From positions 4,032,001 to 4,096,000 of the forward strand of contig OZ244561.1 of NCBI GenBank assembly GCA_965217585.1: DNA of 64,000 nucleotides, in the 5' to 3' direction. Positions 4,269-53,661 of this stretch are shown here, one piece after another. The notes under the pieces were generated by a model, which did no database searches, was not told the DNA's origin, and saw nothing but the letters and a program-made list of their open reading frames with translations. The position numbers and the translations under genes are program-made. Numbering within the stretch: the stretch's first letter is position 1; each line of letters opens with the position of its first letter. This DNA is from Candidatus Latescibacterota bacterium (GTDB lineage Bacteria > Latescibacterota > UBA2968 > UBA8231).

Positions 4269-4745
4269 GTGCGCGTCAATTCAATGGTTAGCCGCCCGGC
4301 ACTTCCCACTTTTCCCTTTCCCACTGCTTTTGCCCGATCCGCTCGACGTATTCCTCCCCCTTGTGCTCGGTCAGCCAGCCCTTGAGGGGAACGTCCTCAT
4401 CTGTCGGCTGCCACCAGCCTTTGACGTCCACCCCATCGCCGAGCAATTGCCGGCGTATTGGACTGCACTTGGCGAGAATCTCATCGGGCATCAGGTTGTA
4501 GTCGAGGCCGCGCAGCCAGCGATAGCTATACCCCAAAAACAACACTTTCCGGGTCGTCTCCGAGGTGTTAATCCCGCGCGCATGCCACATCCGTCGGTCG
4601 AACAACACGGCCGTGCCCGCCTTCACCTGAACCTGCATTGCATCGGCAAAATCGGGCGGATGATCCCCCTTGTGGCTTTCGGGGACAATCCTGATCCCCC
4701 CTCTCTCTGGCTCGCTGATGTCGGTCAGCCAGAATCCGACCTTTA

Positions 4746-5602
4746 GAAGCTGTTGAGTTAAAAGCTATTTTGTATGTTATTTGTCTCAATGGCTCTTTTC
4801 GATAGGAGGCTTGTGTTATGCCTGGGTATCCCAGTGACGTGACCGATGCAGAATGGGTTTTGCTGGCTCCTTTCTTTGCTCGCCCTGACCCTCGGGGCAA
4901 CCCCGGCAAGTATGCCAAACGCGAGGTGGTCAATGCCATTTTATATGTCGTCAAAGGGGGTATTCCGTGGCGGATGCTGCCGCTTGATTTTCCCCCCTGG
5001 GATACCGTCTATGACCATTACCGACGCTGGAATCAGCGTGGCGTGTGGGAACAAGCCCTGGACGCGCTGAATGAGCGCGCCCGTCACAAGCAGGGCAAAA
5101 ACGAGCATCCGACCTATGCCTTGATCGATTCGCAATCGGTTAAAACCCAATATGCCAGTCAGGATCGAGGCGTGGATGGGGGAAAAAAAGATCAAAGGAC
5201 GTAAACGCCACCTCGCCACCGATACGCTGGGTAATATGCTGACCGTCCAAGTACATGCCGCCAATGTGGCCGATACTAGCCAAGGATGGGACGTATGTGA
5301 TCGGGTCGCGGAAAAGTATGATTCGGTCGAAGCCTTCTGCGGCGACCAAGGCTATCGCGGTACCACCGTTGAATTCGTTGAAAACCTGTTGGGGTTGCGA
5401 CTCGATATAGCGGATAAACCAACCCAAGGGTTTCAAGTGGTGCCCAAACGCTGGATCATCGAACGAACCTTGGCTTGGTTGGGTGGATTTCGACGCTTGG
5501 CCAAAGACTTCGAAATCCTCACCCAATCCGCAGAGAACATGATTCGTATTGCCATGATAAAGATTACGGTCGCTAAATGCATCTGAATAACTCAACAGCT
5601 TC
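4746..5602 (+). mobile_element. IS5-family insertion sequence (IS1031-like), 857 bp
   Basis: Perfect 15 bp terminal inverted repeats GAAGCTGTTGAGTTA (4746-4760) and TAACTCAACAGCTTC (5588-5602), with a TTA target duplication at 4743-4745 and 5603-5605. Confidence 0.93.
4818..5586 (+). CDS. IS5-family DDE transposase split over two frames (4818-5204 and about 5183-5586)
   Basis: YPSDVTDAEW, IDSQSVK, KKIKGRKRH..DTLG, GDQGY and KRWIIERTLAWL motifs; the frame changes at GGAAAAAAAG (5181-5190). Confidence 0.88.
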
Positions 5603-6036
5603 TTAGCGATAACCTCGGTTGGGGACGCTCCATTTCGGGAACTGGCCGGCCGCCGTCTTGGTGCCATCCTCCCGGCTTCAGATTGATGCTACTCTTGGAT
5701 TCGGGCGGGTAGTAGATCAAATGCGAGATATAGTGCTGGACGTTCCAGCCGAGAATATCCCAAATCAGCGGAAACGTCTTGGGCCAATCGAGCAGTTCGA
5801 GAAAAACATCATTCTCGACAATAGTCCTGAACTTCGACACCAGGGCATTGGGGGCCAAGCCACGCGCCGCCCTTTCCTCGGCATCGACGCGATCGCCGGC
5901 CTCCAGCAGCCTGCCCAGCATGTCGTCGTCGAGCGCATCCTCGACAATCAAGTATCCCTGCTGCTCAAAATGGTCGCGCTGTGCATCGGTCATGCAGTAC
6001 TGCAAGCAGCTTGGGTCCATGCGCTCTACCTCTCTG

Positions 6037-6078
6037 AAGTTTACGGATGATAGGTCGGCTGAGGACCTCATCCAACAT
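6037..6078 (-). pseudogene. 5' stub of a HEPN toxin gene
   Basis: Reads MLDEVLSRPIIRKL versus MLDEALRRLIVREL at 8576, with the same overlap to the upstream MNT gene; similarity then stops. Confidence 0.7.
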
Positions 6079-6370
6079 GCACGAGTTGATCTTCTTGCTC
6101 TAGGAATTCAGCGACTCGGATCTCAATATCTAGATCAACCAAGTTCACTGGATGGGAGAGTTCATCCATCAATCGACCTAGCAGACGATAGAAGCACTCA
6201 GGTGGACAGCCACGGACACCTATATCCAGATCGGACCGCGGCCGATGCCGTCCGGCTGCGACCGAGCCAAATATAAACACGTCTCGGCATCCCTCTGCCT
6301 TGCAGATCTCCACTGCCCGAACTACATCAGCGCGGTACTCATCGGGAATTGCTGTCCCCGACACGGGCAT
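6068..6370 (-). CDS. Minimal nucleotidyltransferase (MNT/MntA-like antitoxin), copy 1
   Basis: IFGSVA...SDLDIGV and NLVDLD motifs; close paralog of 8566-8868. Confidence 0.88.
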   Translation of the reverse strand: MPVSGTAIPDEYRADVVRAVEICKAEGCRDVFIFGSVAAGRHRPRSDLDIGVRGCPPECFYRLLGRLMDELSHPVNLVDLDIEIRVAEFLEQEDQLVHVG

Positions 6371-7102: not shown

Positions 7103-7259
7103 ATTGCTGTTTTATCAATCGTCCAATCAGCGGAGCACTTCTGTTGTCGCAAGTCTATTAAATCGAAAAGATCATTTTCATTAACTATCAGCCACTTCAA
7201 CGAGAGTAGCAATTAGATCTAGTAGTTACAAGGATTTTTTATGATCGGTCCGAGCGCCC

Positions 7260-7958
7260 CTACCTCCCCCATTCCTCTTCCGGCACCTCCGAATAATCCT
7301 GCGGCTCATACCCAATCGCCCTTTTGCCGTGCTCGACATCGTAGAGCGGCCAGTTGCTGCCCGACACCCCAAAGACGATTTCAAACTTTACGCCCGGATG
7401 AATCAGCGCCTGCTCAAAAACCCGCACGCAATCGCCATGGCTGAGATGGTGCGGGTGTTCGGGCTGGTCGCGTTCGAGGTTGAAATTGCCAATGCGCACG
7501 CAGACAAATTCCATGTCGTGCTGATGGGCAAAAGAGTGGGCCAGGGCCTCGGCGAAGACCTTGCTAACCGTGTAGATGCCCACCGGGGTGGTAGTCATCT
7601 CGACCGTGCGGCGGATGCTGCGCGGATAGAGGGTTAAGACCCCGGCGCGGCTGGCATAGGCGATGCGCTTGACGCCGTTTTGGCGCGCGGCCTCAAACAC
7701 GTTGTACGTGCCGATAAAGTTGCTCTGCAGCATGGTCTCCCACTCGTTGCCGCCGGGCAGACCGCCAATATGGGCGACGGCATCCACGCCGCGAGTGGCT
7801 TCTAACATAGAGTCGAAGTCGGTGAGATCGGAGACAACCGTATCCGTGAGGTCGGGCATGGGCACGCGGTCGTGGCCGCGCACCTCGTGGCGCGCTTGCA
7901 GGCCGCGGGCTACGGTAGAGCCGACGCGGCCAGCCGCGCCGGTTACGAGTACGCGCAT
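7260..7958 (-). CDS. NAD(P)-dependent epimerase/dehydratase (uronate-dehydrogenase-like extended SDR), copy 1
   Basis: TGAAGRVG Rossmann motif and YTVSK catalytic motif; 13 of 232 residues differ from 20251-20949. Confidence 0.88.
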   Translation of the reverse strand: MRVLVTGAAGRVGSTVARGLQARHEVRGHDRVPMPDLTDTVVSDLTDFDSMLEATRGVDAVAHIGGLPGGNEWETMLQSNFIGTYNVFEAARQNGVKRIAYASRAGVLTLYPRSIRRTVEMTTTPVGIYTVSKVFAEALAHSFAHQHDMEFVCVRIGNFNLERDQPEHPHHLSHGDCVRVFEQALIHPGVKFEIVFGVSGSNWPLYDVEHGKRAIGYEPQDYSEVPEEEWGR

Positions 7959-7973
7959 GGTACGTTCCTTTCT

Positions 7974-8111
7974 TTAAGCTCGGTGCAGGGTGATAATCGG
8001 GGCCTCGGGCGGGCAGCCGAAGCGGAAGGGCAGCCAGTACCCAACTCCGGCCGTGGTGTAGAGTTGGGTGGTTCCCTTTTCGTAGTGCCCCCAGATATAG
8101 CGCTCGGGAAA
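7974..8111 (-). pseudogene. Orphan 3' fragment of the metallophosphoesterase gene
   Basis: FPERYIWGHYEKGTTQLYTTAGVGYWLPFRFGCPPEAPIITLHRA matches the C-terminus of 20965-22215; no matching 5' part upstream. Confidence 0.88.
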
Positions 8112-8115
8112 GTCT

Positions 8116-8576
8116 TCAAGCCGACTCCTGTTGCACGAACTGCAAAATCTCTGAGCGGACGATATTCCATGTCTGCGAGGTGTCAGCGACCAATTGGGCC
8201 ATACCATCCCAGATGAGATGATGCGCATACGCGTGACGGGAGCGATGACGGAAGGCAAGGTAGTCGCGCAGACGCTGCCGGGAGTCCTCTGAGATTACAG
8301 CCGGCCGGCTCTCTGTCTGGCGAGCGACCTGATTTAGCAACTCGATATGCCACCGCTCGCCTTCAGGTTGTCTTAGTCGACCTCCTTGGCGATGCGTTCA
8401 AGAATTCGCTCGAGGCCGGTATAGAACGATTCGAGAACTGCCGACAGGGCGGCTAGGCGCTCAAAGGATGGCTCCGCATCGACTGGGGTCCCTAGCAATG
8501 GAGAGGAATTGCTGAGTAGAGTATCGATCTCTTCGAGTTCACGGACGATGAGTCGTCTGAGGGCCTCATCCAACAT
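8116..8576 (-). pseudogene. HEPN (HepT-like) RNase toxin, frameshifted
   Basis: N-half (LESFYTGLERILERIAKEVD*) and C-half (RQPEGERWHIELL...FRHRSRHAY) lie in different frames, with the break at about 8373; RHxxxH catalytic motif; lies directly after MNT. Confidence 0.85.
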
Positions 8577-8868
8577 GCACGAGTTGCCCCTCTTGTTCTA
8601 GGAACTCAGCGACTCGGATTTCAATATCTAGATCAACCAAGTCCACGGGATGGGTAAGTTCATCCATTAACCGACCTAGCAACCGATAGAAGTGCTTGGT
8701 CGGACAGCCACGGACAGCTATATCCAGATCAGACCGTGGCCGATTACGTCCGGCTGCGACCGAGCCAAATATAAACACGTCTCGGCATCCTTCTGCCTTG
8801 CAAATTTCCACCGCCCGAGCTACATCAGCGCGGTACTCATCGGGAATTGCTGACGCCGACACTGGCAT
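8566..8868 (-). CDS. Minimal nucleotidyltransferase (MNT/MntA-like antitoxin), copy 2
   Basis: IFGSVA...SDLDIAV...VDLVDLD; start at 8868 chosen by alignment with copy 1. Confidence 0.88.
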   Translation of the reverse strand: MPVSASAIPDEYRADVARAVEICKAEGCRDVFIFGSVAAGRNRPRSDLDIAVRGCPTKHFYRLLGRLMDELTHPVDLVDLDIEIRVAEFLEQEGQLVHVG

Positions 8869-8927
8869 ATCAAACCTCTTTTTTATTTTCGCCACGAGCC
8901 AGTAGTCATTGCTCTTGGCTTAATCCA

Positions 8928-9314
8928 TCAGACTGCTTGGATGGGACCGGGATAGCCAGCCACCTTGTTGTCCGTGGTAAGCAGCGTGACGCTTTCGACC
9001 TGTGCTTGCGCTATGAGTATGCGGTCGAAGGGGTCCTTGTGGATCGGCGGCAGAGACCCGACAGCGAGCGCGTGTTCGGCTCGAATCCCAAGTTCACTGT
9101 AGTCGTTTTGTATCAGGCCATTCCGCAACTGCTGCGGGTCAACGCAAAAGTCGCTTCTGCCGAGTGCGTTCTTGATGACGACCTCCCAAATACTTGCGAT
9201 GCTGAACATCAACTCCGTGGCGGGGTCACCGAGCAGGTTCTGAGCTTTTGATGACAGCCGTCTTGGGTCGCCTGCCGCCCATAGCAATAGATGGGTATCC
9301 AGTAATAAAGTCAC
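8928..9314 (-). CDS. vapC: PIN-domain VapC-family toxin
   Basis: LLLDTHLLLW, ASIWEVVIK, HKDPFDRILIAQA and LLTTD show the conserved acidic PIN residues; the GTG start overlaps the druE stop (GTGA). Confidence 0.92.
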   Translation of the reverse strand: MTLLLDTHLLLWAAGDPRRLSSKAQNLLGDPATELMFSIASIWEVVIKNALGRSDFCVDPQQLRNGLIQNDYSELGIRAEHALAVGSLPPIHKDPFDRILIAQAQVESVTLLTTDNKVAGYPGPIQAV

Positions 9315-12300
9315 TCATCCCCCCCAAACATCTTCTCTATCTCAGAATCGCCCATGCTGTCGAAGTCGTCGGGGACTTTAATCTCTCCGGCCATGAACCC
9401 CAACCGACGGGATGACTCCTTTCTGGCGGTCCTACCGATTCTTTGCAATACATCCCGCGTTGCCTCCGGAAGATTGCCGCGAACAATTAGTTCGTTTTTC
9501 AAGACCACGGCGATATTACCACCGTTGGTACGAAATTCGGCAATAGCTGGATCGGCTGGCTGGTCAGTAGTCAGTGGACTAGAGAGGGCAATAATGAATT
9601 CTAGTCCAGTGGTGGTTCTTGCCAGAATGGGTGCCGTCAGAACGCCCTTTTTGGTGCTGATTGGAACATCACGTTCGAACTTAATACTATCAACTTCTTG
9701 CCGCTGGAGATCGTGATATAATAGTGCAGTCGATCTCCGCAAGCGTTCGGAGTTAAATCTTGGCTGTTCACCGGTGAGCAGGTATTCAATCAATTCTGCT
9801 CCCACGTGGCGGTCTAGGAGACTGTGTTCAAACTTGTTTTTAAAACTACGTAGACACCGATAACAGGACGCATCGCATTCCTCTGGGCAGGCCGCCATCA
9901 AGTAGTGTGCCTGCTGAAACAGTTCTTGGCCGCAATCGACGAGTTGGCTGGCAAACCCTGCTCCTCCCGGCAAAGTGTCATAGAGAAAGATCTCCGCCTC
10001 AAGACCTCGCGCTCCATCCGGCGTTAGGGCTGGCCGGAATTCAGCCATTAGTTCGCCCGGCTCAATCTCAAGCAACTGACAGGCCGCTTTGGCTAGTGCT
10101 TCACTAACTGTTCTCAAAGCGGCGATGGTTGAAGAATGGCCAGGCCTCAGATTTAGAGGTTTGGCAACGCGCATCGAAAACAGGGCAATGTCCGTAATAA
10201 AATCCGTACCGAGAACGAGGTGCCGCGTCACTCTGGTGCCTTCACACATCATATCGTCATCGTCGGGATAAGGTTTGCGGTGTGCTCCAATCAGTTTAGG
10301 ATCGTGAACAGCGTTGGATTCTATGCGCCCGCATTGAGTACAGTAGGTATAACCATCTTTGTTGGGTCCGGTATTTGATACGAGCAGATGCTGCCGAGCC
10401 CTCAGAACACGGATGTGATCATTGACCGGAGTCCAATCCGCCTCCTTGTCGGGCGTACCCATAGTGAGTTTGGCACGGGTCGCATAACTCGTTTCCGGTA
10501 TGTCGTCTGGCGATGTGACTTCTTCGACATCGATAGGATGGGCAAAGCCCGGCGGGCGGAGCCAATAGCGTCCAGGTCCGAAAGTTTCTTCGCCTCCGCA
10601 AGCCTCACATCTACGTGTTTCGTTGCTCTGTGCCTGACCAATCAAAAAAGTTTTCGCGAAACCGCATTCGCTGCATTCCATGTAAATACGCTTTGATTCC
10701 CAAGCAGCGGACCGGTCGTCTGACATGACGGAGTAAAGTGCACCCGATGTGTAACATTTGCCCGAAATCCAAACCTGTTTGTCCGGTGCGTACTGTGTTA
10801 GGGCAATAGGAAGACCTTGAGATGGTGCAAAACGCATAATTGGGTGAAAGCGCGACGAACGATCTTGGTCGAAAACATGGAATGTGGCCACATCTGTTGG
10901 AAAAGCATAGCGAGGCAGTTGGCCACAATACAGAAGACGGTCAAGAAGCTTACTGGGATTTGAAGCCTGTTGCGGGCGTTCCTCGCCTTGTTCGGATGGG
11001 TCCTCGGTCTCGTTATCTTCGTCAGGATCGCCTTCTACGTCAGTCTCTCCAGGACCAAGCCGAATAGCATCGTCAATCGCTTTCAGGCAATCGACCCTCA
11101 TCTCGCGAAGAAGGTCTTGGCGGTCATCTTCCGAAAGCTCCTCGGGCATCCATGAAAGGACACGCTCCTGCAAACGTTGTTCGTACTCGGTGAGCCAAGC
11201 CGCAAAATCGTCTCGGTTCAATATCGACGTACCGTTACGGAATTCAGAGACCGTACCTAGAACGGAGAACAAGTCGTGTCGTTGTTCCAGATTAATCTCT
11301 GGAAGTCGATCTTGGTGATAATTCTGTAGTAGGAAGGCGCGAATGTGGCGACGTACGATCTCCCGGTTGTCGAGAGTCAACTTCGGATCGACAACATCAC
11401 CGCGAATCATACCATCCGGCTCCGAGAAGTAATGCTCATCGTGGCTATCGGCACTGCCGAACGCAACGACCGTGGCAACAGCGTTACCACGACGGCCCGC
11501 ACGCCCGGAGCGCTGCTGATAGTTAGCACGGCCCGGTGGCATATTGCGCAGAGCAACTCCCGAGAGTGAGCCTATATCAATACCAACCTCCATAGTCGTC
11601 GTGCTCGAAAGAACATCAATGGCAGTTGATCGACTTTCTTCAGTTGATCGACCCTTCAGGTCTATATCCTGAAAGAGTAGTTCGTTCTCTTCGGCCTTGG
11701 AGAAAACATCTTCGTTTTGTGGTGCGTTTAGCTGGGCCGTGTGTTCGGCGGCGATAAGTGCCATGGGCTGTGCCTCCATGACGGGCTTGCGATAGAATCC
11801 TTGGCGAGCAAGGAATACGGGATCGGAATCCGGATCAAGATGCCTAATGTCTAGGCTGCCGCAGTCCAGACAGTGCAACAGTCCTGGTACCGGCCGATGA
11901 ACGGATCTACAAGTCGTGCAATGAACCCAGGTGCCGTCGAACAGAAGCGAAAGCTCGCTGCCTCTAAGTCGCTTGTATCCACTATCAGTATCCTGAGTAA
12001 ACAGGGCCAATAATGCTGGGGACCATTTGTCCCAGAAAATCTTCTGGGCTGTTTTATCCGCAAGAACGATATTCATGGCCTTAAACTTCCCTTTCTGACC
12101 ACGAACGCTCGTGCCCTCTGAACGCGGCCGTCTCCACCATGCGAGGGGCATTGCGTTCAACCAGAAGCCGTGATTTTGCCAGCAGCGCAGCCAAGCCCGT
12201 GCGAGTCCAACCTTGGCTTCGGGAGTTTCGATAAGTCCCGGAATCGTTGGCAGTTTCTCAAGCTCGTCAGTATGCTTGCGTCGTTCAGCAATTGAGGCCA

Positions 12301-14965
12301 GTGCCAGTGCCTCAAACCCGCGGAACCGATCCTGAACGGTCGTAACAATGTTATCGAGCAATGCCTCTGGTGGACGTTCGTTTCGAAACTCCAAGTACAG
12401 ATTTTGCAAGCCCACGTCATTTTCTTTCTCACCATCGCGGATTGCCTTTTCTACAATGAGATTGGCACCATCGAAGCTGCTTTCGCCAGATTTCTCTTCA
12501 GGACGCAGGCGTACGTTTAGTTTCTGCGACGCTAGCAACACGGCGAGATACAAATCCTCAAGATTCAGGTTCGTACTGAGGGCAGGCACGTCCTGAAGCC
12601 TGCGATATCCCCATGAGATGAGAGGACGCAAGGAATCGCGGACCGAATACATTTGTAAGTTCGGTGCGAGTCGGGCAGCGACCTGCCTGGAGTCGGAAAA
12701 GGCCAAGACTTTGCGTCCTTGCAATGGCGCAAAACTGCTAGCTTCTACAGGAGCCGGTGGTTGGATCTGTATCTGACGAGCTACAAGCGCTTGGAATGGC
12801 TGATCGCCTTTCGTCTGATGATCTTGCACATAAGAACGACCAAATCGGGCTGCCTTACCGCAAACCGCACAAGATATGAACTGGCCTCGTGTTTCGATTC
12901 CTGTAGATGTTTCGTCGTCTTCATCGGCAGAATCGGACACTCGATCACCTCGGATATAAACGGTACGTGTGCGTGGGCCCAGCCTCTGAGGATTAAGGCG
13001 TCCCGTTTCGAGATCGTAGTCAGCCGGTTCGGCACTGTCTTCTCGGCCCGGTTCTTCGATAAGCAAGTCAAGGGGCAAAAGCGGACTCGTCTCACCACCT
13101 TCCACTCGGAGCCGCTCTCCAGGCTCAGACCATAGTGCTGACGGAACATCGATGTCGTCGGAGTAAGCTCTTGCGTAGGCTGTGCCGCAATTGCGGCACG
13201 TGTACAATTCTAGAACTCGCGCGCCGCATCCACAACGCTCACGCGGCTGGCTGTACATCTTCCCACAAATACCGTCCTTATGATCATCTTCGATTTCGTT
13301 GCAATCGGGGTCCATGCAAACCCAAAGACCTGCAAGTCCACGAAAAAAATTGTGAATACGACACGGCAAAAGGCCAGGCGTGTTGGGTTCGACACGGGCA
13401 ACGCTTCCGAGGGCCATCAGAGCAGTCACTGCAGCATCGGCTTTCTCGGGTACCGCAGAGGGAAAAAGGAAATGACCAAGTTCTGAAATTGGATATGCCT
13501 GCTGCATAGTTGAATTAATGAGTAGCCCCATCGGTCCGAAACCCACCAGTGCGTTATAAAGCGCGACCTCAGATGTATAGGTACCCTCTACATGGCGATG
13601 ATCAAGAAGGGGTTGTATGACTGAGAGGCGTGCCGAATCTGTGGTCGCCTTGTAGTACCTTTGAAGATCAATAGAAGCGAGAACATCGGCATCATGATCC
13701 GTTCCAGGCGCGTCATGTGGTCTTAGATTGAGAGAACCCGTGATCGAAATGAAGGTATCGGAGGGAATTCCTGAAAGCTGCGCACCGAACTGCGGCGCGT
13801 ACTCGTGGTCCTTGAAACTCGCTGTGGCGCAAATGACCTGGAACCGCTCTGCTGAGATGCTCAGTCGGTCCCGCAGCCGCCGAATAAGAAGACCTACTTC
13901 AGCACCGGCTGCACCTCGGTAAAGATGGGCTTCGTCTAGAACAACGAGGAACTTCTCATTAGGATTGCTCTCAAGCCACTCTCTCGTCTTGTCGAATATA
14001 GGCCGCTCGATCGGGCGCATTAGCATGTATTCGAGCATTGAGTAGTTAGTGACTAGCAGGTCTGGAGGGGTCATTTGAACCTCGTGCCGTATAAGCAGTT
14101 CCGAATCGTCCGGAAGCGTAACGGCTCTTTGGAACTCTCCAGTCGTAGGGTCCTGCCACCTGCTGCCTTTTTCACCTAGCCACGCGGCCAGATCAGGCTT
14201 GGCCGGCCATTTGCCGCGTTCTCTCAAAGCTTGCAGCAGTCGGTGCGATTTCTCCTGTTCCTCTGAATCTTTGGTCTGCGCACAACGCTGGATGTCCGCA
14301 TAGAAATCATTAAAGGCTTTGAGCTTTAAGGAATCCTTCTTGGCGGTGCGAATGCCCGCATACGGCGTCCTGCTTGTATAACGGGCAAAGCGCGGTGGCC
14401 TGCCGGCCCACTCTTTGAATAGCTTCACGAGTCGGGGATCGCCGAACAGCGCTCGCAGTCGTCCGAGTTGGTCGTTCACTAGCGCGTTCATAGGATAGAG
14501 AATGAGCGCTCGCATGGCTGTCTGTTGGCCAAAGGAAGCAGGACATGTTTTCGCTTCTTGTGCGAGCTTGCCAAGGATCGGTAAGAGAAAGGATTCGGTC
14601 TTCCCAGAACCTGTCCCTGTCGTAATGACAAGATTTCTGCCATCAATGAGGCTGCCGCGGATAGCGTCGGACTGGTGCTTATACGGCGGATTATAGACAA
14701 GCCTCGGTAGATCGCCCTCGGGCTTGGACACCACCAGATAGGCTTCAAGGGCTGCCGCAGGCAACCCATTCATGGCGGCGAAGCCTTCGCCTGTCTGGTA
14801 GCGGGGAGTCGATTCGAGATAAGGGACTTGATATATGACACCAGGGTTATCGAGCAATTCCTTCCGCTGTGCGATGAGCGACCGGGCACTGACGTGATAA
14901 GTAGCCTCGATATAGTCACAAAGCGCACCATGTAGTTGCTTAATGTTTTCTTGAATCGTCGTCAT
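9311..14965 (-). CDS. druE: Druantia DruE-like DEAH-box helicase with DUF1998, carrying a C-terminal antitoxin-like tail
   Basis: 1884 aa; TGTGSGKTE, YPMNALVNDQ, LDEAH, QQRSGRAGRR, several CxxC clusters and CPEECDASCYRCL (DUF1998); last gene of an operon that starts with druA. Confidence 0.88.
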   Translation of the reverse strand: MTTIQENIKQLHGALCDYIEATYHVSARSLIAQRKELLDNPGVIYQVPYLESTPRYQTGEGFAAMNGLPAAALEAYLVVSKPEGDLPRLVYNPPYKHQSDAIRGSLIDGRNLVITTGTGSGKTESFLLPILGKLAQEAKTCPASFGQQTAMRALILYPMNALVNDQLGRLRALFGDPRLVKLFKEWAGRPPRFARYTSRTPYAGIRTAKKDSLKLKAFNDFYADIQRCAQTKDSEEQEKSHRLLQALRERGKWPAKPDLAAWLGEKGSRWQDPTTGEFQRAVTLPDDSELLIRHEVQMTPPDLLVTNYSMLEYMLMRPIERPIFDKTREWLESNPNEKFLVVLDEAHLYRGAAGAEVGLLIRRLRDRLSISAERFQVICATASFKDHEYAPQFGAQLSGIPSDTFISITGSLNLRPHDAPGTDHDADVLASIDLQRYYKATTDSARLSVIQPLLDHRHVEGTYTSEVALYNALVGFGPMGLLINSTMQQAYPISELGHFLFPSAVPEKADAAVTALMALGSVARVEPNTPGLLPCRIHNFFRGLAGLWVCMDPDCNEIEDDHKDGICGKMYSQPRERCGCGARVLELYTCRNCGTAYARAYSDDIDVPSALWSEPGERLRVEGGETSPLLPLDLLIEEPGREDSAEPADYDLETGRLNPQRLGPRTRTVYIRGDRVSDSADEDDETSTGIETRGQFISCAVCGKAARFGRSYVQDHQTKGDQPFQALVARQIQIQPPAPVEASSFAPLQGRKVLAFSDSRQVAARLAPNLQMYSVRDSLRPLISWGYRRLQDVPALSTNLNLEDLYLAVLLASQKLNVRLRPEEKSGESSFDGANLIVEKAIRDGEKENDVGLQNLYLEFRNERPPEALLDNIVTTVQDRFRGFEALALASIAERRKHTDELEKLPTIPGLIETPEAKVGLARAWLRCWQNHGFWLNAMPLAWWRRPRSEGTSVRGQKGKFKAMNIVLADKTAQKIFWDKWSPALLALFTQDTDSGYKRLRGSELSLLFDGTWVHCTTCRSVHRPVPGLLHCLDCGSLDIRHLDPDSDPVFLARQGFYRKPVMEAQPMALIAAEHTAQLNAPQNEDVFSKAEENELLFQDIDLKGRSTEESRSTAIDVLSSTTTMEVGIDIGSLSGVALRNMPPGRANYQQRSGRAGRRGNAVATVVAFGSADSHDEHYFSEPDGMIRGDVVDPKLTLDNREIVRRHIRAFLLQNYHQDRLPEINLEQRHDLFSVLGTVSEFRNGTSILNRDDFAAWLTEYEQRLQERVLSWMPEELSEDDRQDLLREMRVDCLKAIDDAIRLGPGETDVEGDPDEDNETEDPSEQGEERPQQASNPSKLLDRLLYCGQLPRYAFPTDVATFHVFDQDRSSRFHPIMRFAPSQGLPIALTQYAPDKQVWISGKCYTSGALYSVMSDDRSAAWESKRIYMECSECGFAKTFLIGQAQSNETRRCEACGGEETFGPGRYWLRPPGFAHPIDVEEVTSPDDIPETSYATRAKLTMGTPDKEADWTPVNDHIRVLRARQHLLVSNTGPNKDGYTYCTQCGRIESNAVHDPKLIGAHRKPYPDDDDMMCEGTRVTRHLVLGTDFITDIALFSMRVAKPLNLRPGHSSTIAALRTVSEALAKAACQLLEIEPGELMAEFRPALTPDGARGLEAEIFLYDTLPGGAGFASQLVDCGQELFQQAHYLMAACPEECDASCYRCLRSFKNKFEHSLLDRHVGAELIEYLLTGEQPRFNSERLRRSTALLYHDLQRQEVDSIKFERDVPISTKKGVLTAPILARTTTGLEFIIALSSPLTTDQPADPAIAEFRTNGGNIAVVLKNELIVRGNLPEATRDVLQRIGRTARKESSRRLGFMAGEIKVPDDFDSMGDSEIEKMFGGDE

Positions 14966-14977
14966 AAGGAGTCTCTT

Positions 14978-16060
14978 CTAGTCTGAATCTCTTGTGAGCG
15001 AAAGCCAGAGCTGTTCCTGAAGGAATTGCTCCTCTCTCTCCATCTCGGTGCTTGGTATTCGGTAGGACATCAAACTGCGATCTCGCGGCAGTGGACGCCC
15101 AATAATCATAAGACGCCGTTGCGACCACTCTGGCAGCGGGGAAAAGAAATCTAGGCGTACGCCGTCGCCGTCATTCAGCCGTCGATAGATCTGCGGGGTA
15201 TGACGGCAATGGTCAATCGCCATTTGCAAATGCCACGCTATATCGCAGCCACGCCACCGTGTTCTCTTGGGAGGCAGGTCCAGCAACCGGACAACCGTGC
15301 CTTCCTCTAATTCGGCAAAGCACCAGATAGGCGCACCGAATTCCTGTGGCCGTCTTGCGACGAAGGTGCCGGTCCGGTTTTGGGGTGTTGTCCAACGTCC
15401 GCTGTAAAATTTCACGGGCCGCGTCGGGTCAAGAACTTGGAGATCGTCGACAGCACCACTTGGCGGTTGCGCCGAAAGCTGATGCTTAAATTGCCTAAGC
15501 ATGTCTTCGGGCCGCTCTGCTTTCGGGCTCTTGAGCCAAGAATTTTCGGATAGCCGTTGCAAGCCCTGCTCGAGCAGTTCGGTGACGAGTTCTTCATCAG
15601 GCTTTGAGGCAATTATGCGTGTCAAGCCTTCGTACCTAACCCGCGAGGCCAGTGACTGTGGCAGGAAAACATCCTGATCGTGAACGATACCCAGCAGGAA
15701 GACATCGCCACTTGGCCTCACGACAAAGCTGGGCGGTGCGGCAAAAACCCATGTTCCCCTCACGTTGGGATCATCGATTGCTACATCGTTCAGTTCAAGA
15801 AGGTCCCCACCGACGATAAGGCCCTCGATGATCTCGTCAATATGATCAGATAGTGGTGTCTCGGCCGGGGATAGGTATTGGAGGCTTTCGAGGAGCGAGC
15901 CGCGCAGCATGGCGCGGGAGCATGGACAATGGATCCCTGCACTACGCCTGAGTAGGAACGCGAGCAAAACATCGTCTATAGACCCTTCCTGGCTTCCGGG
16001 AAGACCAAGCGTCTGCCTATATCTGGAGAGAACGTCACCCGCCAATATCTTAGTGATCAC
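14978..16060 (-). CDS. Druantia accessory protein (DruD/DruG-like by position and size)
   Basis: 360 aa ORF co-directional and tightly packed just upstream of druE; no motif recognised independently. Confidence 0.6.
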   Translation of the reverse strand: MITKILAGDVLSRYRQTLGLPGSQEGSIDDVLLAFLLRRSAGIHCPCSRAMLRGSLLESLQYLSPAETPLSDHIDEIIEGLIVGGDLLELNDVAIDDPNVRGTWVFAAPPSFVVRPSGDVFLLGIVHDQDVFLPQSLASRVRYEGLTRIIASKPDEELVTELLEQGLQRLSENSWLKSPKAERPEDMLRQFKHQLSAQPPSGAVDDLQVLDPTRPVKFYSGRWTTPQNRTGTFVARRPQEFGAPIWCFAELEEGTVVRLLDLPPKRTRWRGCDIAWHLQMAIDHCRHTPQIYRRLNDGDGVRLDFFSPLPEWSQRRLMIIGRPLPRDRSLMSYRIPSTEMEREEQFLQEQLWLSLTRDSD

Positions 16061-16089: not shown

Positions 16090-18921
16090 TTAGCCGTGAT
16101 TATGGGTATTGCGCAAAAGGGTAAGGAATCGCGCCCCGCGTAGAATCACTGGATTACCTCGGACAGTGTTGAGCATTTCGTCCAGTTCACAGCCAAACAT
16201 CTTAGAAAGCAGGTGGGGTTCGGTGGCTAACCTAAATGCAAAACCGCACAACTTAGGATCAGTGCTCACGTGATACCGCATCGCCAGATCCGAATACCAT
16301 TGTTCAGCTTGATCTGGATTATTATCTATTTTTTTGTGTTCACGACGCAGTACGGCAGAGAACCCAGTGGATTTTTTTTCTACGGCCTGCTGTAGAGTAT
16401 CAAGAGCAGGCTGCGAATTTGGCGTCTTCAGAAAAGCTTTTTCCGCCCGCGTCCAGTTTTGACCGCAAAGCGTTTCGTAAATGCTATCAAGGTATCCATC
16501 CGCTATCTGCTCCTGTCGAGCTTTCACGAGGGTTCCATACAAGCGCCCTCCGTGCCAATGTGCGAGCATACGCAAACAGCCTCCCAAAGCAATAGAGCCG
16601 GTACGAATTCCAAAAAAGTCGGGAGTAATTCCAAGGCCGCGCAAACCCTCGTGTCTTGGTATAGCACTAACGATCACTACATCGCAGTGGTCTCCTTGCT
16701 TCGCATAGAACAATCCCCCAGGCGGCTCAACGATCATTCCGGATAAAGCTTTTTCTGATAGATATCGTTTTTCCTTAAGAGGACACTCCATGCTAAAAAA
16801 AAGAACTTCGGGTTCGGAATTTTCCTGGCCAGTATCATCGATCAATCTGATACGGATATCATTACGATCGCGGCTCAAAATCCAACGTAGAGGGACAGAA
16901 TCGTGCTCAAACAGGCACGAAAATTCACCGAGTTCCTCTCCCTTTATTTTTATTTGACCTGTAGTAGCTTTGAGGTAACTCCACGTAATTTTCTCATTTT
17001 CTAGGAACTTGGAAAATCTATTGCTCCATGCCTCTGGAGTAATCGGTAGTTCCACATTGTCGAAACGCTTTGAAAGAATCTCCTTACCGCTCCTGTCTTC
17101 GAGGGAGACAGTAATTGTGACAGGACGACCCTCTGGACCCAGTACTGACAGCTTCACCTCGTTTCTCCAAAAGATATCGAGATCAGCGTCGTGCGGTTCG
17201 AGGGTCACGATGAAGCCGGTGTGGGAAACGGCCCCGGGAGTCCACGGCTCAGGTTCCCGCACATGTAGTTGAGCGAACCCTTCAGCCCCAGGGGTCGCTA
17301 CAACTTCATTCAGCCAACTACTCCGCTGTGCCTTGACTGTAAGTATGTGTTCCCCTGTGGGAAGAGACGGTAGACGCACGAAAATAGGTTCTCCCTTCGG
17401 ACCCGCCTCAACTACCGTCTGTGTGCCGTTATTGATGCAGAGTAAATATGCGTCAACAGGGTGATCGTGCATGAATCCAAAGCACGGCTCCTCAGTCGTA
17501 AGCCACTCACTACTTCCTTCGCCATCCCAGCCACGACCGGGAAGCCCAGCAGGCCAGACCTGGATAGTTCGCGCCACTTGCAGATCGAGCTTATTAAGCC
17601 ACGCTGTATCCTCCTCAGACACACTGGGAGGGATTTGCAGACGAAAGGATTTTACGCCAGTGCAATTCACGGAGCAGGCGCTCATACCATTATATGGTTC
17701 AGGTAACTCCGCTGTTGTGACAACGATGTAGCTGCAGCCGGGCCGAACGATACAGCTAGTAATTTCACGGGCAGTCCCGTCCCTAGCAATCCGAAATAGC
17801 CAGACCGGACCGGGCGTGAGGCGGCATTCGGATTCAAGAAGGTGGTCAATTTTACCGTGCGATTGATCAAACTGAATAAGCGGCTTTTGCGAATCGGGCC
17901 AAGACCTCAGAACGCCCTTTCGGTTCCTAGCAAGAAGCCAGCCTGCTGACTTGATATCGTCGGCACCGTTGAGACGGCATCGAGTGCTCCTCAGAAAGGA
18001 CCGAATATCTGTACTGAGTGTAGCAACGTTGTGGAAGGACGGAATCTCCAACCGGACTGACCAAGTTCCTCCACCGCGGTGGCCCAACACAATATTCGGC
18101 CGAGCACTAAATCGGACTCCATCCGGCACGGCCGAAGACCCGCGTTGAATAGACAAACCTCTACCGGGTTGCCCGCTGCCGATTCCTTTGAAGCGATCGC
18201 GGACGTAACGTCTTGTTTCTCCGAACCACTCGCGCGTACTGCGAACCTTCTCCAGATCCTCAACGATCCGTTGGAGGGTTCGCGGATAAATCAGCTCTTC
18301 GCCTCCTACGGGTGTCGCGTCAAGAAGAGCGAGAACGATTCGCCCTGTCAGTTCTTCCTGTTGGAGGAACTCTTGAAAACGGGTAGAGGCATGATGCGCG
18401 TTAGCAGCTAGTAATCGTCCGATAGTGGTAGGAGCGAGTGTCCCCAAACCAGCAAGACGATAACGTAGATCATAGAGCGTTTTGGCAAACTGGCGCTGTA
18501 GGTATCGAGGAAGAATAGCATGCGTAATTGGCCAAGAGATAATTGTGAAATGATTCGCCCATAGACCGGACGGCACTACGCCATCATACATCTCTTGGAA
18601 TTTTATGAAACAGCGGCGGAGCTTATAGCGGTCTTCTGCCTCCCACTGTGGCATCTGTTCCTCGAACGACCGCCAGTACTCGTCTCCCTCGTAAGTGTAG
18701 CCGCGCTCACTGGCATAGATCACCCAAGGAAGCCAGTATCGCGACAAAGGAATTCGGGCTTTGAGGCAGGAGTGAAGCAGCGATGATACTTCTTCGATTT
18801 CCTCGTCGTTCAGACTATGCTCAAGGGCAAAGATGTGATATTCAGAGCCTGCTCGAATGCGTACAAGAGACTCAAAATGCCGCTCAAGGCGTTCCTGCCA
18901 TTGTTCGAGATGCGTCGGCAT
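16090..18921 (-). CDS. Large Druantia accessory protein (DruB-C fusion-like or DruF-like), about 943 aa
   Basis: Long ORF between druA and the 360 aa gene; ATG at 18921 follows AGGAAGGTGAG; the role is inferred from context. Confidence 0.6.
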   Translation of the reverse strand: MPTHLEQWQERLERHFESLVRIRAGSEYHIFALEHSLNDEEIEEVSSLLHSCLKARIPLSRYWLPWVIYASERGYTYEGDEYWRSFEEQMPQWEAEDRYKLRRCFIKFQEMYDGVVPSGLWANHFTIISWPITHAILPRYLQRQFAKTLYDLRYRLAGLGTLAPTTIGRLLAANAHHASTRFQEFLQQEELTGRIVLALLDATPVGGEELIYPRTLQRIVEDLEKVRSTREWFGETRRYVRDRFKGIGSGQPGRGLSIQRGSSAVPDGVRFSARPNIVLGHRGGGTWSVRLEIPSFHNVATLSTDIRSFLRSTRCRLNGADDIKSAGWLLARNRKGVLRSWPDSQKPLIQFDQSHGKIDHLLESECRLTPGPVWLFRIARDGTAREITSCIVRPGCSYIVVTTAELPEPYNGMSACSVNCTGVKSFRLQIPPSVSEEDTAWLNKLDLQVARTIQVWPAGLPGRGWDGEGSSEWLTTEEPCFGFMHDHPVDAYLLCINNGTQTVVEAGPKGEPIFVRLPSLPTGEHILTVKAQRSSWLNEVVATPGAEGFAQLHVREPEPWTPGAVSHTGFIVTLEPHDADLDIFWRNEVKLSVLGPEGRPVTITVSLEDRSGKEILSKRFDNVELPITPEAWSNRFSKFLENEKITWSYLKATTGQIKIKGEELGEFSCLFEHDSVPLRWILSRDRNDIRIRLIDDTGQENSEPEVLFFSMECPLKEKRYLSEKALSGMIVEPPGGLFYAKQGDHCDVVIVSAIPRHEGLRGLGITPDFFGIRTGSIALGGCLRMLAHWHGGRLYGTLVKARQEQIADGYLDSIYETLCGQNWTRAEKAFLKTPNSQPALDTLQQAVEKKSTGFSAVLRREHKKIDNNPDQAEQWYSDLAMRYHVSTDPKLCGFAFRLATEPHLLSKMFGCELDEMLNTVRGNPVILRGARFLTLLRNTHNHG

Positions 18922-18929
18922 CGTCGCGC

Positions 18930-20153
18930 TCACCTTCCTGTGTCCCCGGCAATCAGCCGACCCGAATTCGAGTAGCAAGTTTGTATGATCTGGCTGTGGT
19001 CGCCGAACAATTGGATAAGATGATCACTCGTCCATTTCCGGTACTCAGGTCGTCTCTGCGAACGCGGCACGATCCAGCGTTCGCGGGCCAAGCGAGCAAC
19101 TTTACTGACACTGAGAAGCGATGAAAGGTCAGGGCGGCCTTTGCCGGTACGGAGGAGCTCGGTGGCATTGGACGCCAGCGAGCAGATGAAGACTTCCCGT
19201 CGAATGCCGTGACGGAGCAGATTATCATTGAATCCTAGTGCCTTCAAAGCAGCCCGTGTTGTGCGTAGTCGCCAGTTCGGCCCAGCACCGAACCGGTGAA
19301 GGTCCGCATACGGATGCTCAATTTCACGTAAGTAATCGCGTAGTTCAGCAAACAACTCATCAGGGATATGAAAATGGCCCCACCCTCTGGTGTAGCCAAT
19401 GGAACGAAAATACTCCGTTTCTCCCAATTTTAGCCTATTATAAACTGAGGAACGTCCCATTGAAGACGTAGTCGTCACTGCGAGAAGACGTGCCTTCTTC
19501 TGTTTCTGGGATATAATGCCGACTGTCGCACCGTATGTTTTCATAAAGTCTTTATATATCTTTTGGGTCCGGATGAGACAGGCTACCATCTTTCCACCGA
19601 GTAAGACATTATAAGGCGGTAAGGCACCGAGCACGTAAGCGTCCATGATATTGACGAGGCGTTCTCTGCGGTCATGCGCGTTCCATCCGATCAGGTTATC
19701 GCGGACCGAGAGATTAAAAACCGGATCGCCAATCGCGATCAATCCGATCAGTTTTCCATTATTCTTATCCCACACGAGATACCTGAGACGGCGGCCGAAC
19801 CCATTCGACACCGGAACAGACCAAGTCATGGACGCCAGTCTGAACAGGTCAGATTGCCATGTACCGGCGGATATCCTTTCCAGACGAGGCGATATATTGG
19901 CTGGTTCAATATCTCTTCCCGACGCAAAGTGTTTAATCAGTGCCGAGGCACGTTGTACCAAAAAGTTACGGTTCGCTTCTCGGCGGGCATTTCTTTGCGA
20001 GCTATGAAGTGCTCGTATAACATCTTTGCCTCTACCTTCGACCTCTAGGATGCCCTCGGCTGAGTTTTGAAAGCCGAGGGAAAGAAGATGACAACGTATC
20101 CTCTGTTTGAGGTTGGCTTCCTGTGAATAGATTGGGATAACAGAGCGATCCAT
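18930..20153 (-). CDS. druA: Druantia DruA (DUF4338 family)
   Basis: 407 aa with LFRLASMTWSVPVSNGFGRRLRYLVWD, GDPVFNL, MDAYVLGALPPYNVLLGGK, TTSSMGRSSVYNRL and GYTRGWGHFH, all typical of DruA. Confidence 0.85.
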   Translation of the reverse strand: MDRSVIPIYSQEANLKQRIRCHLLSLGFQNSAEGILEVEGRGKDVIRALHSSQRNARREANRNFLVQRASALIKHFASGRDIEPANISPRLERISAGTWQSDLFRLASMTWSVPVSNGFGRRLRYLVWDKNNGKLIGLIAIGDPVFNLSVRDNLIGWNAHDRRERLVNIMDAYVLGALPPYNVLLGGKMVACLIRTQKIYKDFMKTYGATVGIISQKQKKARLLAVTTTSSMGRSSVYNRLKLGETEYFRSIGYTRGWGHFHIPDELFAELRDYLREIEHPYADLHRFGAGPNWRLRTTRAALKALGFNDNLLRHGIRREVFICSLASNATELLRTGKGRPDLSSLLSVSKVARLARERWIVPRSQRRPEYRKWTSDHLIQLFGDHSQIIQTCYSNSGRLIAGDTGR

Positions 20154-20248: not shown

Positions 20249-21102
20249 CCCTACCTCCCCCACTCCTCCTCCGGCACCTCCGAATAATCCTGCGGCTCGT
20301 ACCCAATCGCCTTTTTCCCGTGTTCGACGTCGTAGAGCGGCCAGTTGCTGCCCGACACCCCAAAGACGATTTCAAACTTTACGCCCGGATGAATCAGCGC
20401 CTGCTCAAAAACCCGCACGCAATCGCCATGGCTGAGGTTGTGTGGATGTTCGGGCTGGTCGCGCTCGAGGTTGAAGTTGCCGATGCGCACGCAGACAAAT
20501 TCCATGTCGTGCTGATGGGCAAAAGAGTGGGCCAAAGCCTCGCCGAAGATCTTGCTGACCGTGTAGATACCCACCGGAGTAGTAGTCATATCGACCGTGC
20601 GGTGGATGCTGCGCGGATAGAGGCCCAAGACCCCGGCGCGGCTGGCATAGGCGACGCGCTTGACGCCGTTTTGGCGCGCGGCCTCAAACACGTTGTACGT
20701 GCCGATAAAGTTGCTCTGCAGCATCGTCTCCCACTCGTTGCCACCGGGCAGACCCCCAATGTGGGCAACGGCGTCCACGCCGCGCGTGGCCTCTAGCATA
20801 GAATCAAAGTCGGTGAGGTCAGAAACGACCGTATCTGTGAGATCGGGCATGGGCACGCGGTCGTGGCCGCGCACCTCGTGGCGATCTTTGAGGCCGCGGG
20901 CCACGTTAGAGCCGACGCTGCCGGCCGCGCCGGTTACGAGTATGCGCATGGTACGCTCCTTTCTTTAAGCTCGGTGTAGGGTGATAATCGGGGCCTCGGG
21001 CGGGCAGCCGAAGCGGAAGGGCATCCAGTGCCCAACTCCGGCTGTGGTGTAGAGCTGGGTGCGGCCCTTTTCGTAGTGCCCCCAGATATAGCGCTCGGGA
21101 AA
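20249..21102. repeat. About 850 bp imperfect direct repeat, copy 2
   Basis: Colinear with 7258-8111. Confidence 0.93.
20251..20949 (-). CDS. NAD(P)-dependent epimerase/dehydratase, copy 2
   Basis: TGAAGSVG and YTVSK motifs. Confidence 0.88.
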   Translation of the reverse strand: MRILVTGAAGSVGSNVARGLKDRHEVRGHDRVPMPDLTDTVVSDLTDFDSMLEATRGVDAVAHIGGLPGGNEWETMLQSNFIGTYNVFEAARQNGVKRVAYASRAGVLGLYPRSIHRTVDMTTTPVGIYTVSKIFGEALAHSFAHQHDMEFVCVRIGNFNLERDQPEHPHNLSHGDCVRVFEQALIHPGVKFEIVFGVSGSNWPLYDVEHGKKAIGYEPQDYSEVPEEEWGR

Positions 21103-53340: not shown

Positions 53341-53661
53341 CTACTGGTCCGGACTTCCGTGGATGGTTCCCAAGTCGCGCTGGAGCTCTTCGAGGTCGTA
53401 TTGGGCAGGCACCTTTCTGGCACGGGCATAATCCATCATCTCCCACAAGGAGACTCCAGCATCGCGCGCAGCTCGCGCCAGCGTGAGCTTTCCATCTCCA
53501 TACAGCCGGACGTAGTGCTCGAGCTTCCATTGCTGGATCGCTTTCGAGAGTAGCCGGCGCACAGTGGTCGAGCGATCGGACTGCTCAACCTCCTCGATAA
53601 ACGCCAATTCGCGGACCAACTCCGAGGGGAGCCTAGTGCCGACCATCTGTTCCTTCTTCAT
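53341..53661 (-). CDS. UPF0175 family protein with N-terminal ribbon-helix-helix
   Basis: TRLP...DRSTTVRRLL and LYGDGKLTLARAARDAGVSLWEM...YDLEELQRDL. Confidence 0.78.
   Translation of the reverse strand: MKKEQMVGTRLPSELVRELAFIEEVEQSDRSTTVRRLLSKAIQQWKLEHYVRLYGDGKLTLARAARDAGVSLWEMMDYARARKVPAQYDLEELQRDLGTIHGSPDQ

Follow-up and report, generated by a model that had tools for sequence, protein, structure and literature searches.

A Druantia DruE helicase ending in an antitoxin-type tail ahead of an intact PIN gene, and the candidate tail-PIN cassette it carries

We analyzed a window of 64,000 nucleotides (positions 4,032,001 to 4,096,000, forward strand, of contig OZ244561.1, GenBank assembly GCA_965217585.1) from a Candidatus Latescibacterota bacterium. 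Our subject is the 3' end of a Druantia defence operon within it, where the helicase gene druE runs in frame into a short antitoxin-type tail and overlaps an intact gene for a VapC-like toxin with a PIN domain. All coordinates are those of the window. On the minus strand, a 1884-amino-acid (aa) open reading frame (ORF) starting with ATG (9311-14965) is followed by a 128-aa ORF starting with GTG (8928-9314); together they contain the following features.

9434..14965, minus strand: DruE body, residues 1-1844; Druantia type I YprA-like helicase with DEAD, Helicase_C and MZB/DUF1998 domains
9410..9433, minus strand: linker RTARKESS, residues 1845-1852, placed by C-terminal comparison of DruE relatives
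9314..9409, minus strand: antitoxin-type tail, residues 1853-1884, the last 32 codons of DruE, which read RRLGFMAGEIKVPDDFDSMGDSEIEKMFGGDE
9311..9314, minus strand: GTGA overlap of the DruE stop codon (TGA) and the PIN start codon (GTG)
8928..9314, minus strand: PIN (VapC-like) toxin gene, 128 aa, intact (PF01850, E 8.4e-11)

The DruE-tail-PIN junction

The large protein aligned to the PADLOC DruE1 model (PDLC00013) with E=0 and 2038 bits, its residues 2-1843 falling on profile positions 5-1774 of 1776. Pfam identified DEAD (1.1e-17), Helicase_C (1e-9) and MZB (1.7e-12) domains, and the translation shows GSGKT and DEAH motifs; by sequence, the protein is a complete Druantia type I DruE. Because the profile match ends at residue 1843, residues 1845-1884 lie beyond a normal DruE. 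Neither Pfam nor PADLOC found an RHH, Phd or HTH domain ahead of the tail in DruE, and Pfam returned no match for the 59-aa C-terminal piece even at E≤10. Since no gap lies between DruE and PIN, there is no separate antitoxin ORF there, and the purine-rich final codons of the tail are likely to provide the ribosome-binding site for PIN. A scan of 8300-10300 gave no signal of promoters or terminators, with three promoter-like sites (expected 1.2 ± 1.0) and two terminator-like sites (expected 2.0). An earlier note on this DNA had described an in-frame tail at the end of the 1884-aa DruE, the TGA/GTG overlap, an intact PIN gene and the lack of a separate antitoxin ORF, all of which the ORFs confirm.

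We searched DruE residues 1700-1884 against a set of 5.8 billion proteins at E≤0.001, and 704 relatives passed. Among the best 120 listed, 117 end at about ...LQKIG, that is, ...NELIVRGNLPAATR.V.QKIG plus 0-11 residues, with lengths of ~1830-1856 aa; only P0021, P0022 and P0023 continue into the tail. These three proteins are 93, 90 and 80% identical to the window's DruE over the full length, and they represent clusters that have 19, 15 and 4 members drawn from different sources. By our count, the linkers of the fused DruEs are 8, 10, 13 and 15 aa long. Their sequences vary as well, yet every tail is in frame, and the same DruE/tail junction recurs in the fragments P0003 and P0202. Judged from this alignment, the tail is not the normal end of DruE. 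The earlier note had allowed that it might be an ordinary DruE C-terminus or that the fusion might occur only here; neither is the case, as the normal end lies before the tail and three other DruE clusters carry it.

We built a tree of 25 DruE proteins (the window's DruE, P0001, and those members of P0021-P0045 that are at least 1800 aa long, with P0041 excluded and the tail columns removed). P0001, P0021 and P0022 grouped together (support 100) with the unfused P0024 as their sister (support 100), and the fused P0023 fell outside this group; the tree requires at least two changes of fusion state, so a single origin of the fusion is not settled by it. The end of P0024, FSVIPPRN, was also considered as a frame-2 reading of the linker; the likeness is faint and too weak to count.

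The window stretch is present in sequencing runs of 12 studies, some labelled sponge metagenome. We compared it with contigs from four runs of four studies, having excluded the four best-matching runs as a possible source of the assembly. The DruE/tail junction is bridged by X5 record 12 (9344-10663, 24 differences) and X6 record 19 (9338-9450, 1 difference), and the tail/PIN junction is bridged by X5 record 8 (8927-9373) and X6 record 18 (9050-9356). No indel is listed across either junction in these contigs of two independent studies, and the stretch 9400-9460, where the earlier note had thought a misjoin conceivable, is spanned by them. In JGI metagenomes, the 129-aa junction gave 596 pattern matches, none of them a relative, and a degenerate DNA pattern for the passage from the DruE end to the tail picked out two stretches, both false.

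The tail, its carriers and the PIN gene

Using the 59-aa C-terminal query against the same 5.8-billion-protein database, we obtained 18 candidates, all of them small proteins (E 1.7e-16 to 1.4e-4), in which a near-identical tail follows an RHH-like domain, Phd/YefM (PF02604), DUF433 or another short N-terminus. A tail profile, A1, made from 15 tails on different carriers and scored against 1.84 billion representative proteins, matched 1173 representatives at E≤0.001 and 155 at E≤1e-10; the residues invariant across the 15 tails are R, G, F, G, I, VPDDFD, MG, I and F. Of 143 newly listed matches to this profile, 137 are 130 aa or shorter, and in at least 113 the motif lies no more than 25 residues from the C-terminus. 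Eighty-four of the 143 are at least 70 aa long, among which 17 match PhdYeFM, 4 DUF2281, 2 PHD_like and 1 MqsA; Phd/YefM is the commonest recognised N-terminal domain of tail bearers. The NCBIfam model TA_VapB aligned to the tail below its threshold (E 0.0019, 18.7 bits against a cut-off of 60). The canonical order, a Phd/YefM antitoxin with the tail followed by an overlapping LLLDTH PIN gene, occurs as a more distant pair in the same genome, at locus L024 and on viral contig L041.

Based on these comparisons, the likeness of the tail to antitoxins is far beyond chance. To the extent that sequence can tell, it is the toxin-side module found at the C-terminus of the Phd/YefM-, RHH- and DUF433-type antitoxins that precede LLLDTH PIN toxins. 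The earlier note had recognised the motif as an antitoxin C-terminal segment, and the 59-aa search, the tail profile and the canonical Phd-tail-PIN pairs bear this out. Several small tail bearers are themselves chimeric (P0207, P0212, P0240, P0245 and P0251), with tandem double tails, fusions of a PIN N-terminus to a tail (P0245), or an antitoxin run into PIN; they look like signs of frequent rearrangement among tail bearers.

A search for the tail on longer proteins returned 66 matches, comprising 3 DruE proteins, 24 proteins that we call Family A, 27 with a C-terminus of the type of a second family, Family B, and 12 others; one of the Family B-type matches, P0203, is a different PIN domain fused to that C-terminus. 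Among the 12 others are Res subunits of Type III restriction enzymes, namely P0144 (1117 aa, 25 sequences), P0147 (1107 aa, 9 sequences) and the fragment P0141. PADLOC REase_III matched P0144 and P0147 with E 1.5e-204 and 9.7e-210, Pfam ResIII matched them too, and both end ...ASSRRLGFM[AD]GEIKVPDDFDSMGDSEIEKMFEEDE. The 12 also include an Nmad2 protein (P0180), a STAS-like DUF4325 protein (P0183) and four DUF433 proteins. One tail subtype, ...EKMFEEDE, is common to the DruE P0023, the Res fusions and some Family A proteins, and other Family A proteins end ...EKMFGGG; that tail subtypes cross carriers fits an exchange of cassettes between them.

Family A (~310 aa; P0155; loci L007, L010-L014 and L018) and Family B (~305 aa; P0158; loci L006, L008 and L028) always end in the tail. 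Neither family matched Pfam, PHROGs or PADLOC, and Family A was not found in viral contigs. ESM Atlas placed Family A at 0.93-0.94 to clusters of phage major capsid proteins with 135-145 shared features, a weak lead only, and Family B at 0.84 to YozE-like clusters, likewise a lead only. The AlphaFold models of the two families were poor (mean pLDDT 41.5 and 44.0), and we drew nothing from them.

Within the PIN protein, the acidic residues D6, E44, D97 and D115 are invariant in 12 aligned PINs; NCBIfam gave no family for it. Pairwise comparison of the 12 PIN genes gave a median dN/dS of 0.19 over 62 pairs, with values of 0.14-0.34 between the window's PIN and its 11 relatives, indicating purifying selection on PIN; the genes are kin, so these values show constraint and not independent events.

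We examined 22 places with a tail (the window, L002, L006-L024 and L028), a set that is short of all known tail places by six. An intact 128-aa PIN gene stands at 12 of the 22, in every case -4 to +1 bases from the tail stop, and the carriers there are DruE (1), Family A (7), Family B (3) and Phd/YefM (1). Four of the 12 pairs start PIN with ATG at the position of the GTG. The other 10 places, nine with an RHH antitoxin and one with a remnant of Family B, have lost PIN to deletion or disruption; its first 13 bases remain behind several orphan tails. PIN is thus intact beside 11/11 large carriers seen and beside 0/9 RHH antitoxins, where it was destroyed at no fewer than five different deletion junctions by our reading of the junction alignment. 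One of these RHH cases lies in the window's own genome: L002:1378-1623 (G000:C1, about 1,243,300-1,243,560) encodes an orphan 81-aa RHH-like antitoxin whose tail is 72% identical to that of DruE. Only the first 13 PIN bases are left behind it, and L009 and L021 share the same deletion junction and downstream gene. An RNA run, X18, yielded four contigs with only pieces of PIN and tail copies, from which we drew nothing on expression.

To predict the complex, the PIN alignment was folded with the tail alignment in three runs. The tail-PIN pair reached an ipSAE of 0.46 (runs 0.41, 0.46 and 0.48) against 0.01 for the best control, a value in a range where predictions are more often wrong than right unless the guess is likely beforehand. 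The mark was reached by 58/80 solved complexes and 2/110 mismatched pairs, and 7 of those 80 together with both passing mismatches scored 0.60 or under. The runs agreed in at least 89% of contacts, and partner pLDDT was at least 58. The earlier note had proposed modelling the tail with VapC; the outcome lends weak support to binding of PIN by the tail, at a score that lies where errors are common. A search of the PDB by sequence found no chain for the PIN profile at E≤0.01 and only chance-level matches (E>1) for the tail, and so no comparable complex.

The tail-PIN cassette and the surroundings of the operon

Comparison with loci of sister species (L026, L027 and L029) delimits a block of tail plus PIN and its neighbours.

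8924..9416, minus strand: cassette block, tail plus PIN; 89-90% DNA identity to the Family A-tail-PIN loci of sister species L026, L027 and L029 (blastn)
20251..20949, minus strand: NAD-dependent epimerase, copy 1; in comparison with sister species, the Druantia insert has its left border at the stop codon of this gene
8566..8895, minus strand: MNT-type nucleotidyltransferase antitoxin (Pfam Polbeta / NTP_transf_2); 89% by tblastn to the MNT of L029, where MNT also follows PIN
8373..8576, minus strand: truncated HepT-like remnant (Pfam HepT-like_2, E 1.7e-4, below cut-off, profile positions 1-25 of 110)

The gene order in L026, L027 and L029 is membrane protein, metallophosphoesterase, epimerase, Family A with tail, and PIN, followed in L029 by MNT. 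Identity between the window and these loci is 88-91% over 24000 to 20249, where the epimerase gene stops (for example, window 24000-20249 aligns to L027 1186-4936 at 91% by blastn), and 88-90% from 9416 through PIN, this second stretch of homology beginning at the SS codons before RRLGF. Between those points lie ~1 kb of Family A body in the relatives and 10.8 kb of Druantia in the window. Because the epimerase-side and tail-side matches flank different bodies, the 5' carrier has been swapped while tail and PIN stayed constant. At 9416, loose contig ends of runs X6 and X7 carry the sequence of the Family A junction. By our count, the tail occurs in 18/30 other genomes of the genus, and where PIN is intact but Druantia is lacking, a different ORF bears the tail in the same place (7 Family A loci).

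On this evidence, tail and PIN travel together as a portable cassette among sponge-associated bacteria, joined to its carriers at the boundary between SS and RRLGF. The earlier note had offered an accidental deletion-fusion as its alternative; a simple local event of that kind is not borne out, as the cassette sits on many carriers and Druantia takes the place of another carrier in sister species. The cassette probably moved by homologous recombination. Integron-like or transposon-like movement was considered and set aside, the junctions showing no repeat or site, only the start of homology. At L026:7704-8966, a paralogue from which PIN has been deleted, a 420-aa ORF links a Family A body through only the first half of the tail (LGFMAGAIKIPDDFDRLGGP) to an MNT antitoxin.

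Two duplications lie in the window around this block. The metallophosphoesterase 3' end and the epimerase gene occur at 7258-8112 and 20249-21100, 92.6% identical over 854 nt, and the MNT gene occurs at 6068-6370 and 8566-8895, 88.8% identical. The Druantia-tail-PIN-MNT block lies between the two copies, an arrangement that points to recombinational import from a related strain or to a duplication long ago. Of the three decayed toxin genes that the earlier note had counted in the window, we came across one, the HepT fragment at 8373-8576.

The rest of the operon lies upstream of druE.

14978..16060, minus strand: DruD (PADLOC DruD1, E 3.2e-132)
16090..18978, minus strand: 962-aa ORF in the DruB/DruC position, no family match
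18930..20153, minus strand: DruA (PADLOC DruA1, E 7.5e-202)

For the 962-aa ORF, PADLOC gave no match even at E≤10 with its DruB and DruC models included, and neither Pfam nor NCBIfam gave any. A 284-aa query picked up no second close DruE1 in 168 species genomes of the phylum, and the only trace of DruE in 75 other genomes of the order is a 34-aa piece in G026. From this distribution, the operon is judged foreign to the lineage and acquired from outside the phylum. At the syntenic site of G026 (L045:4976-5800, G026:C274), the epimerase stop is followed by 99 nt left over from the 3' end of druE, which share 82.8% identity with window 9531-9433, and then by a HigB-HigA pair. The remnant therefore indicates that Druantia once stood at that site, abutting a different toxin-antitoxin module, and was later deleted.

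Elsewhere in the window, 49635-53312 (minus strand) encodes a 1225-aa SIR2-type Dsr1 defence protein (PADLOC Dsr1, E 1.3e-85), and a small ORF upstream of it at 53341-53661 (minus strand) matches the candidate system PDC-S70 (E 1.8e-5). A dioxygenase-like gene at 4288-6071, whole in L029 and L027, is seemingly split by an inserted element with two overlapping transposase-like ORFs (4818-5586, plus strand).

Interpretation and relation to known systems

The observed architecture, its inheritance, the behaviour of the cassette and the constraint on PIN incline us, by a modest degree, to read the locus as a type II module of the VapBC kind in which the antitoxin is reduced to a toxin-binding tail of ~32 aa on DruE, and whose main effect would be to stabilise the carrier gene as an addiction or integrity lock. 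Ribosomes finishing DruE would restart at the overlapping GTG, and this coupling would yield tail and PIN at about 1:1; PIN would be captured by the DruE tail, and the toxin would stay bound to DruE. The antidote would sit in the final 32 codons of a 1884-codon (5.6-kb) gene and be lost whenever druE is truncated or deleted; if PIN were still translated from its own purine-rich ribosome-binding site, such druE mutants would be poisoned. Such a lock would stabilise a costly, horizontally acquired defence operon. It fits with the lock that an intact PIN is always accompanied by a tail carrier, and that Druantia was lost where a free-standing HigBA pair stands behind the DruE remnant. Release of PIN by phage interference could use the same architecture and is not needed to explain the data.

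Several points weigh against a lock of this kind. Translational coupling cuts both ways, as a premature stop in druE might also lower the translation of PIN. The unfused P0024 falls inside the fused clade. P0004, a 51-aa metagenomic ORF, begins in the +1 frame of the DruE 3' end and then continues into an in-frame linker and tail (window 9410-9480); if real, it shows that a single-base indel is enough to part the tail from DruE. The linker DNA has an AAGGAG motif 12 nt before the in-frame TTG codon of Leu1855, and a free tail peptide might be started at an internal TTG or ATG. The score of the predicted complex falls in the error-prone range given above. P0021-P0023 and the Res fusions are known at the level of protein alone, and the counts across species are of kin and do not represent independent events. 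Finally, strict addiction to druE, which the earlier note had proposed, is weakened by P0004 and by the orphan RHH antitoxin of the same genome, whose 72%-identical tail could act on PIN in trans, so that the lock would leak.

The earlier note had favoured a toxin-guarded Druantia system. In such a system, DruE would sequester PIN until phage-caused binding, cleavage or degradation, or a conformational change of DruE on phage DNA, freed it as a second line of defence and aborted the infection. We regard this as possible but doubtful. The tail does occur on an unrelated defence enzyme, the Type III Res subunit (P0144, P0147), and on Nmad2, a nucleotide-modification-associated domain, and PIN is intact beside all the large carriers seen and beside none of the RHH antitoxins. 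DruE of Druantia type I has a Vsr nuclease domain that is predicted to be inactivated, according to the YprA preprint (PMC12458937), so that an added nuclease would not be redundant, and PrrC on EcoprrI (PMC1484252) and CrePA (PMC12737573) are precedents. However, most tail carriers are ordinary small antitoxins, and the commonest large carriers, Families A and B, are without a recognisable defence domain; moreover, in Hachiman-PezAT the toxin-antitoxin module is reported to be dispensable for defence and to act on expression (PMC13064477). A broader version, which we put forward as a speculation and consider unlikely, makes tail plus PIN a portable arming-and-locking module that turns any carrier into the keeper of an RNase, with DruE and Type III Res becoming two-layer immune devices. 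An intact defence enzyme would silence PIN; anti-defence proteins, proteolysis or a triggered conformational change would free it and abort infection, while truncating mutants of the defence gene would be purged from the population, and Families A and B would act as sensors of this type that have so far escaped recognition.

The fusion could instead be a neutral by-product, with frequent recombination among the many copies of tail plus PIN within these communities grafting the cassette onto whatever lies upstream, the DruE fusion being tolerated with no role in Druantia, and PIN being held in check by the RHH orphan or a free tail peptide. The orphan RHH-tail antitoxin in the same genome, the separate small tail ORF of P0004 and the AAGGAG motif ahead of Leu1855 would all suit this account, as would the odd chimeras (P0245, the Family A-half-tail-MNT ORF of L026 and the double tails) and a contig depth of tail and PIN in metagenomes far above that of DruE, which fits many copies. 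Yet the tail keeps in frame with DruE across 80-93% identity and changes of linker (although a protein search misses out-of-frame forms), dN/dS of PIN is about 0.2, and PIN has been destroyed repeatedly beside RHH antitoxins but never beside a large carrier seen; we therefore hold the by-product account to be quite improbable. An assembly or sequencing error, in which a 1-nt indel joined DruE to a separate small antitoxin ORF, would be easier to entertain for a genome that is a single 7.3-Mb contig and for which the one-indel variant P0004 exists. We consider it extremely unlikely, because contigs of two further studies span the junction free of indels (X6 record 19 with 1 base difference, X5 record 12 with 24), and because three more clusters (19, 15 and 4 members) share the in-frame fusion.

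If the tail neutralises PIN, then a short peptide suffices to make any protein an antitoxin, and natural selection would have placed such a peptide repeatedly on large defence enzymes. For Druantia and Type III restriction, this would amount to a counterpart, at the level of protein, of CreTA/CrePA and PrrC, and would help to explain why costly defence operons persist. Tail, PIN and carrier would then offer a simple, testable handle on how toxin-antitoxin modules and defence systems become one unit. For annotation, tail-only antitoxins fused to large genes make PIN toxins look like orphans. Text searches of the literature returned no paper joining "Druantia" and "VapC", and broader searches returned nothing of this kind; the available text of the YprA/DruE survey preprint (PMC12458937), apart from supplementary tables that possibly list C-terminal extensions, mentions no such tail. 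Within the literature so searched, we found no description of such a putative tail-only antitoxin carried by defence enzymes within a portable tail-PIN cassette.

Among known systems, the module is closest to VapBC pairs with Phd/YefM or RHH antitoxins, with which it shares a PIN domain with four acidic residues, an antitoxin directly upstream, overlapping stop and start codons and a homologous tail. In contrast to these pairs, the DNA-binding N-terminal domain is absent and the tail forms the last 32 residues of a 1884-aa helicase; autoregulation and lability of the antitoxin thus cannot be assumed here, and because the small DNA-binding antitoxin is lacking, we file the module as a VapBC variant and not as a plain member. 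The anticodon nuclease PrrC is described as latent on the Type Ic enzyme EcoprrI and activated by a T4 inhibitor (PMC1484252), and there, too, an RNase toxin is encoded beside a DNA-targeting defence enzyme and proposed to be held by it. PrrC is ABC-ATPase-fused and non-covalently masked, and its activation has been shown, whereas at our locus PIN would be held by a peptide in the defence protein's own chain, and the resemblance is one of architecture.

Toxin-antitoxin pairs embedded in defence loci are also reported as CreTA and CrePA of CRISPR-Cas loci, where loss or inhibition of the effector unleashes the toxin, with addiction as the outcome for CreTA and abortive infection for CrePA (PMC12737573). 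Their antitoxins are RNAs guiding Cascade, whereas we observe a protein fusion with probable translational coupling, in Druantia and, as regards the fusion, in Type III restriction enzymes. Pez-Ham, which joins Streptococcus PezAT to Hachiman, resembles our locus as a type II toxin-antitoxin module attached to a helicase-nuclease defence system; its PezAT genes are separate and repress Hachiman expression, and the available text of that report does not describe an antitoxin-helicase fusion (PMC13064477). Modular shuffling of toxin-antitoxin parts likewise characterises the hyperpromiscuous antitoxin network of Panacea/PAD1 as reported in PMC10440598; there, one antitoxin domain is combined with many toxins, whereas here toxin and peptide are constant and the carrier changes.

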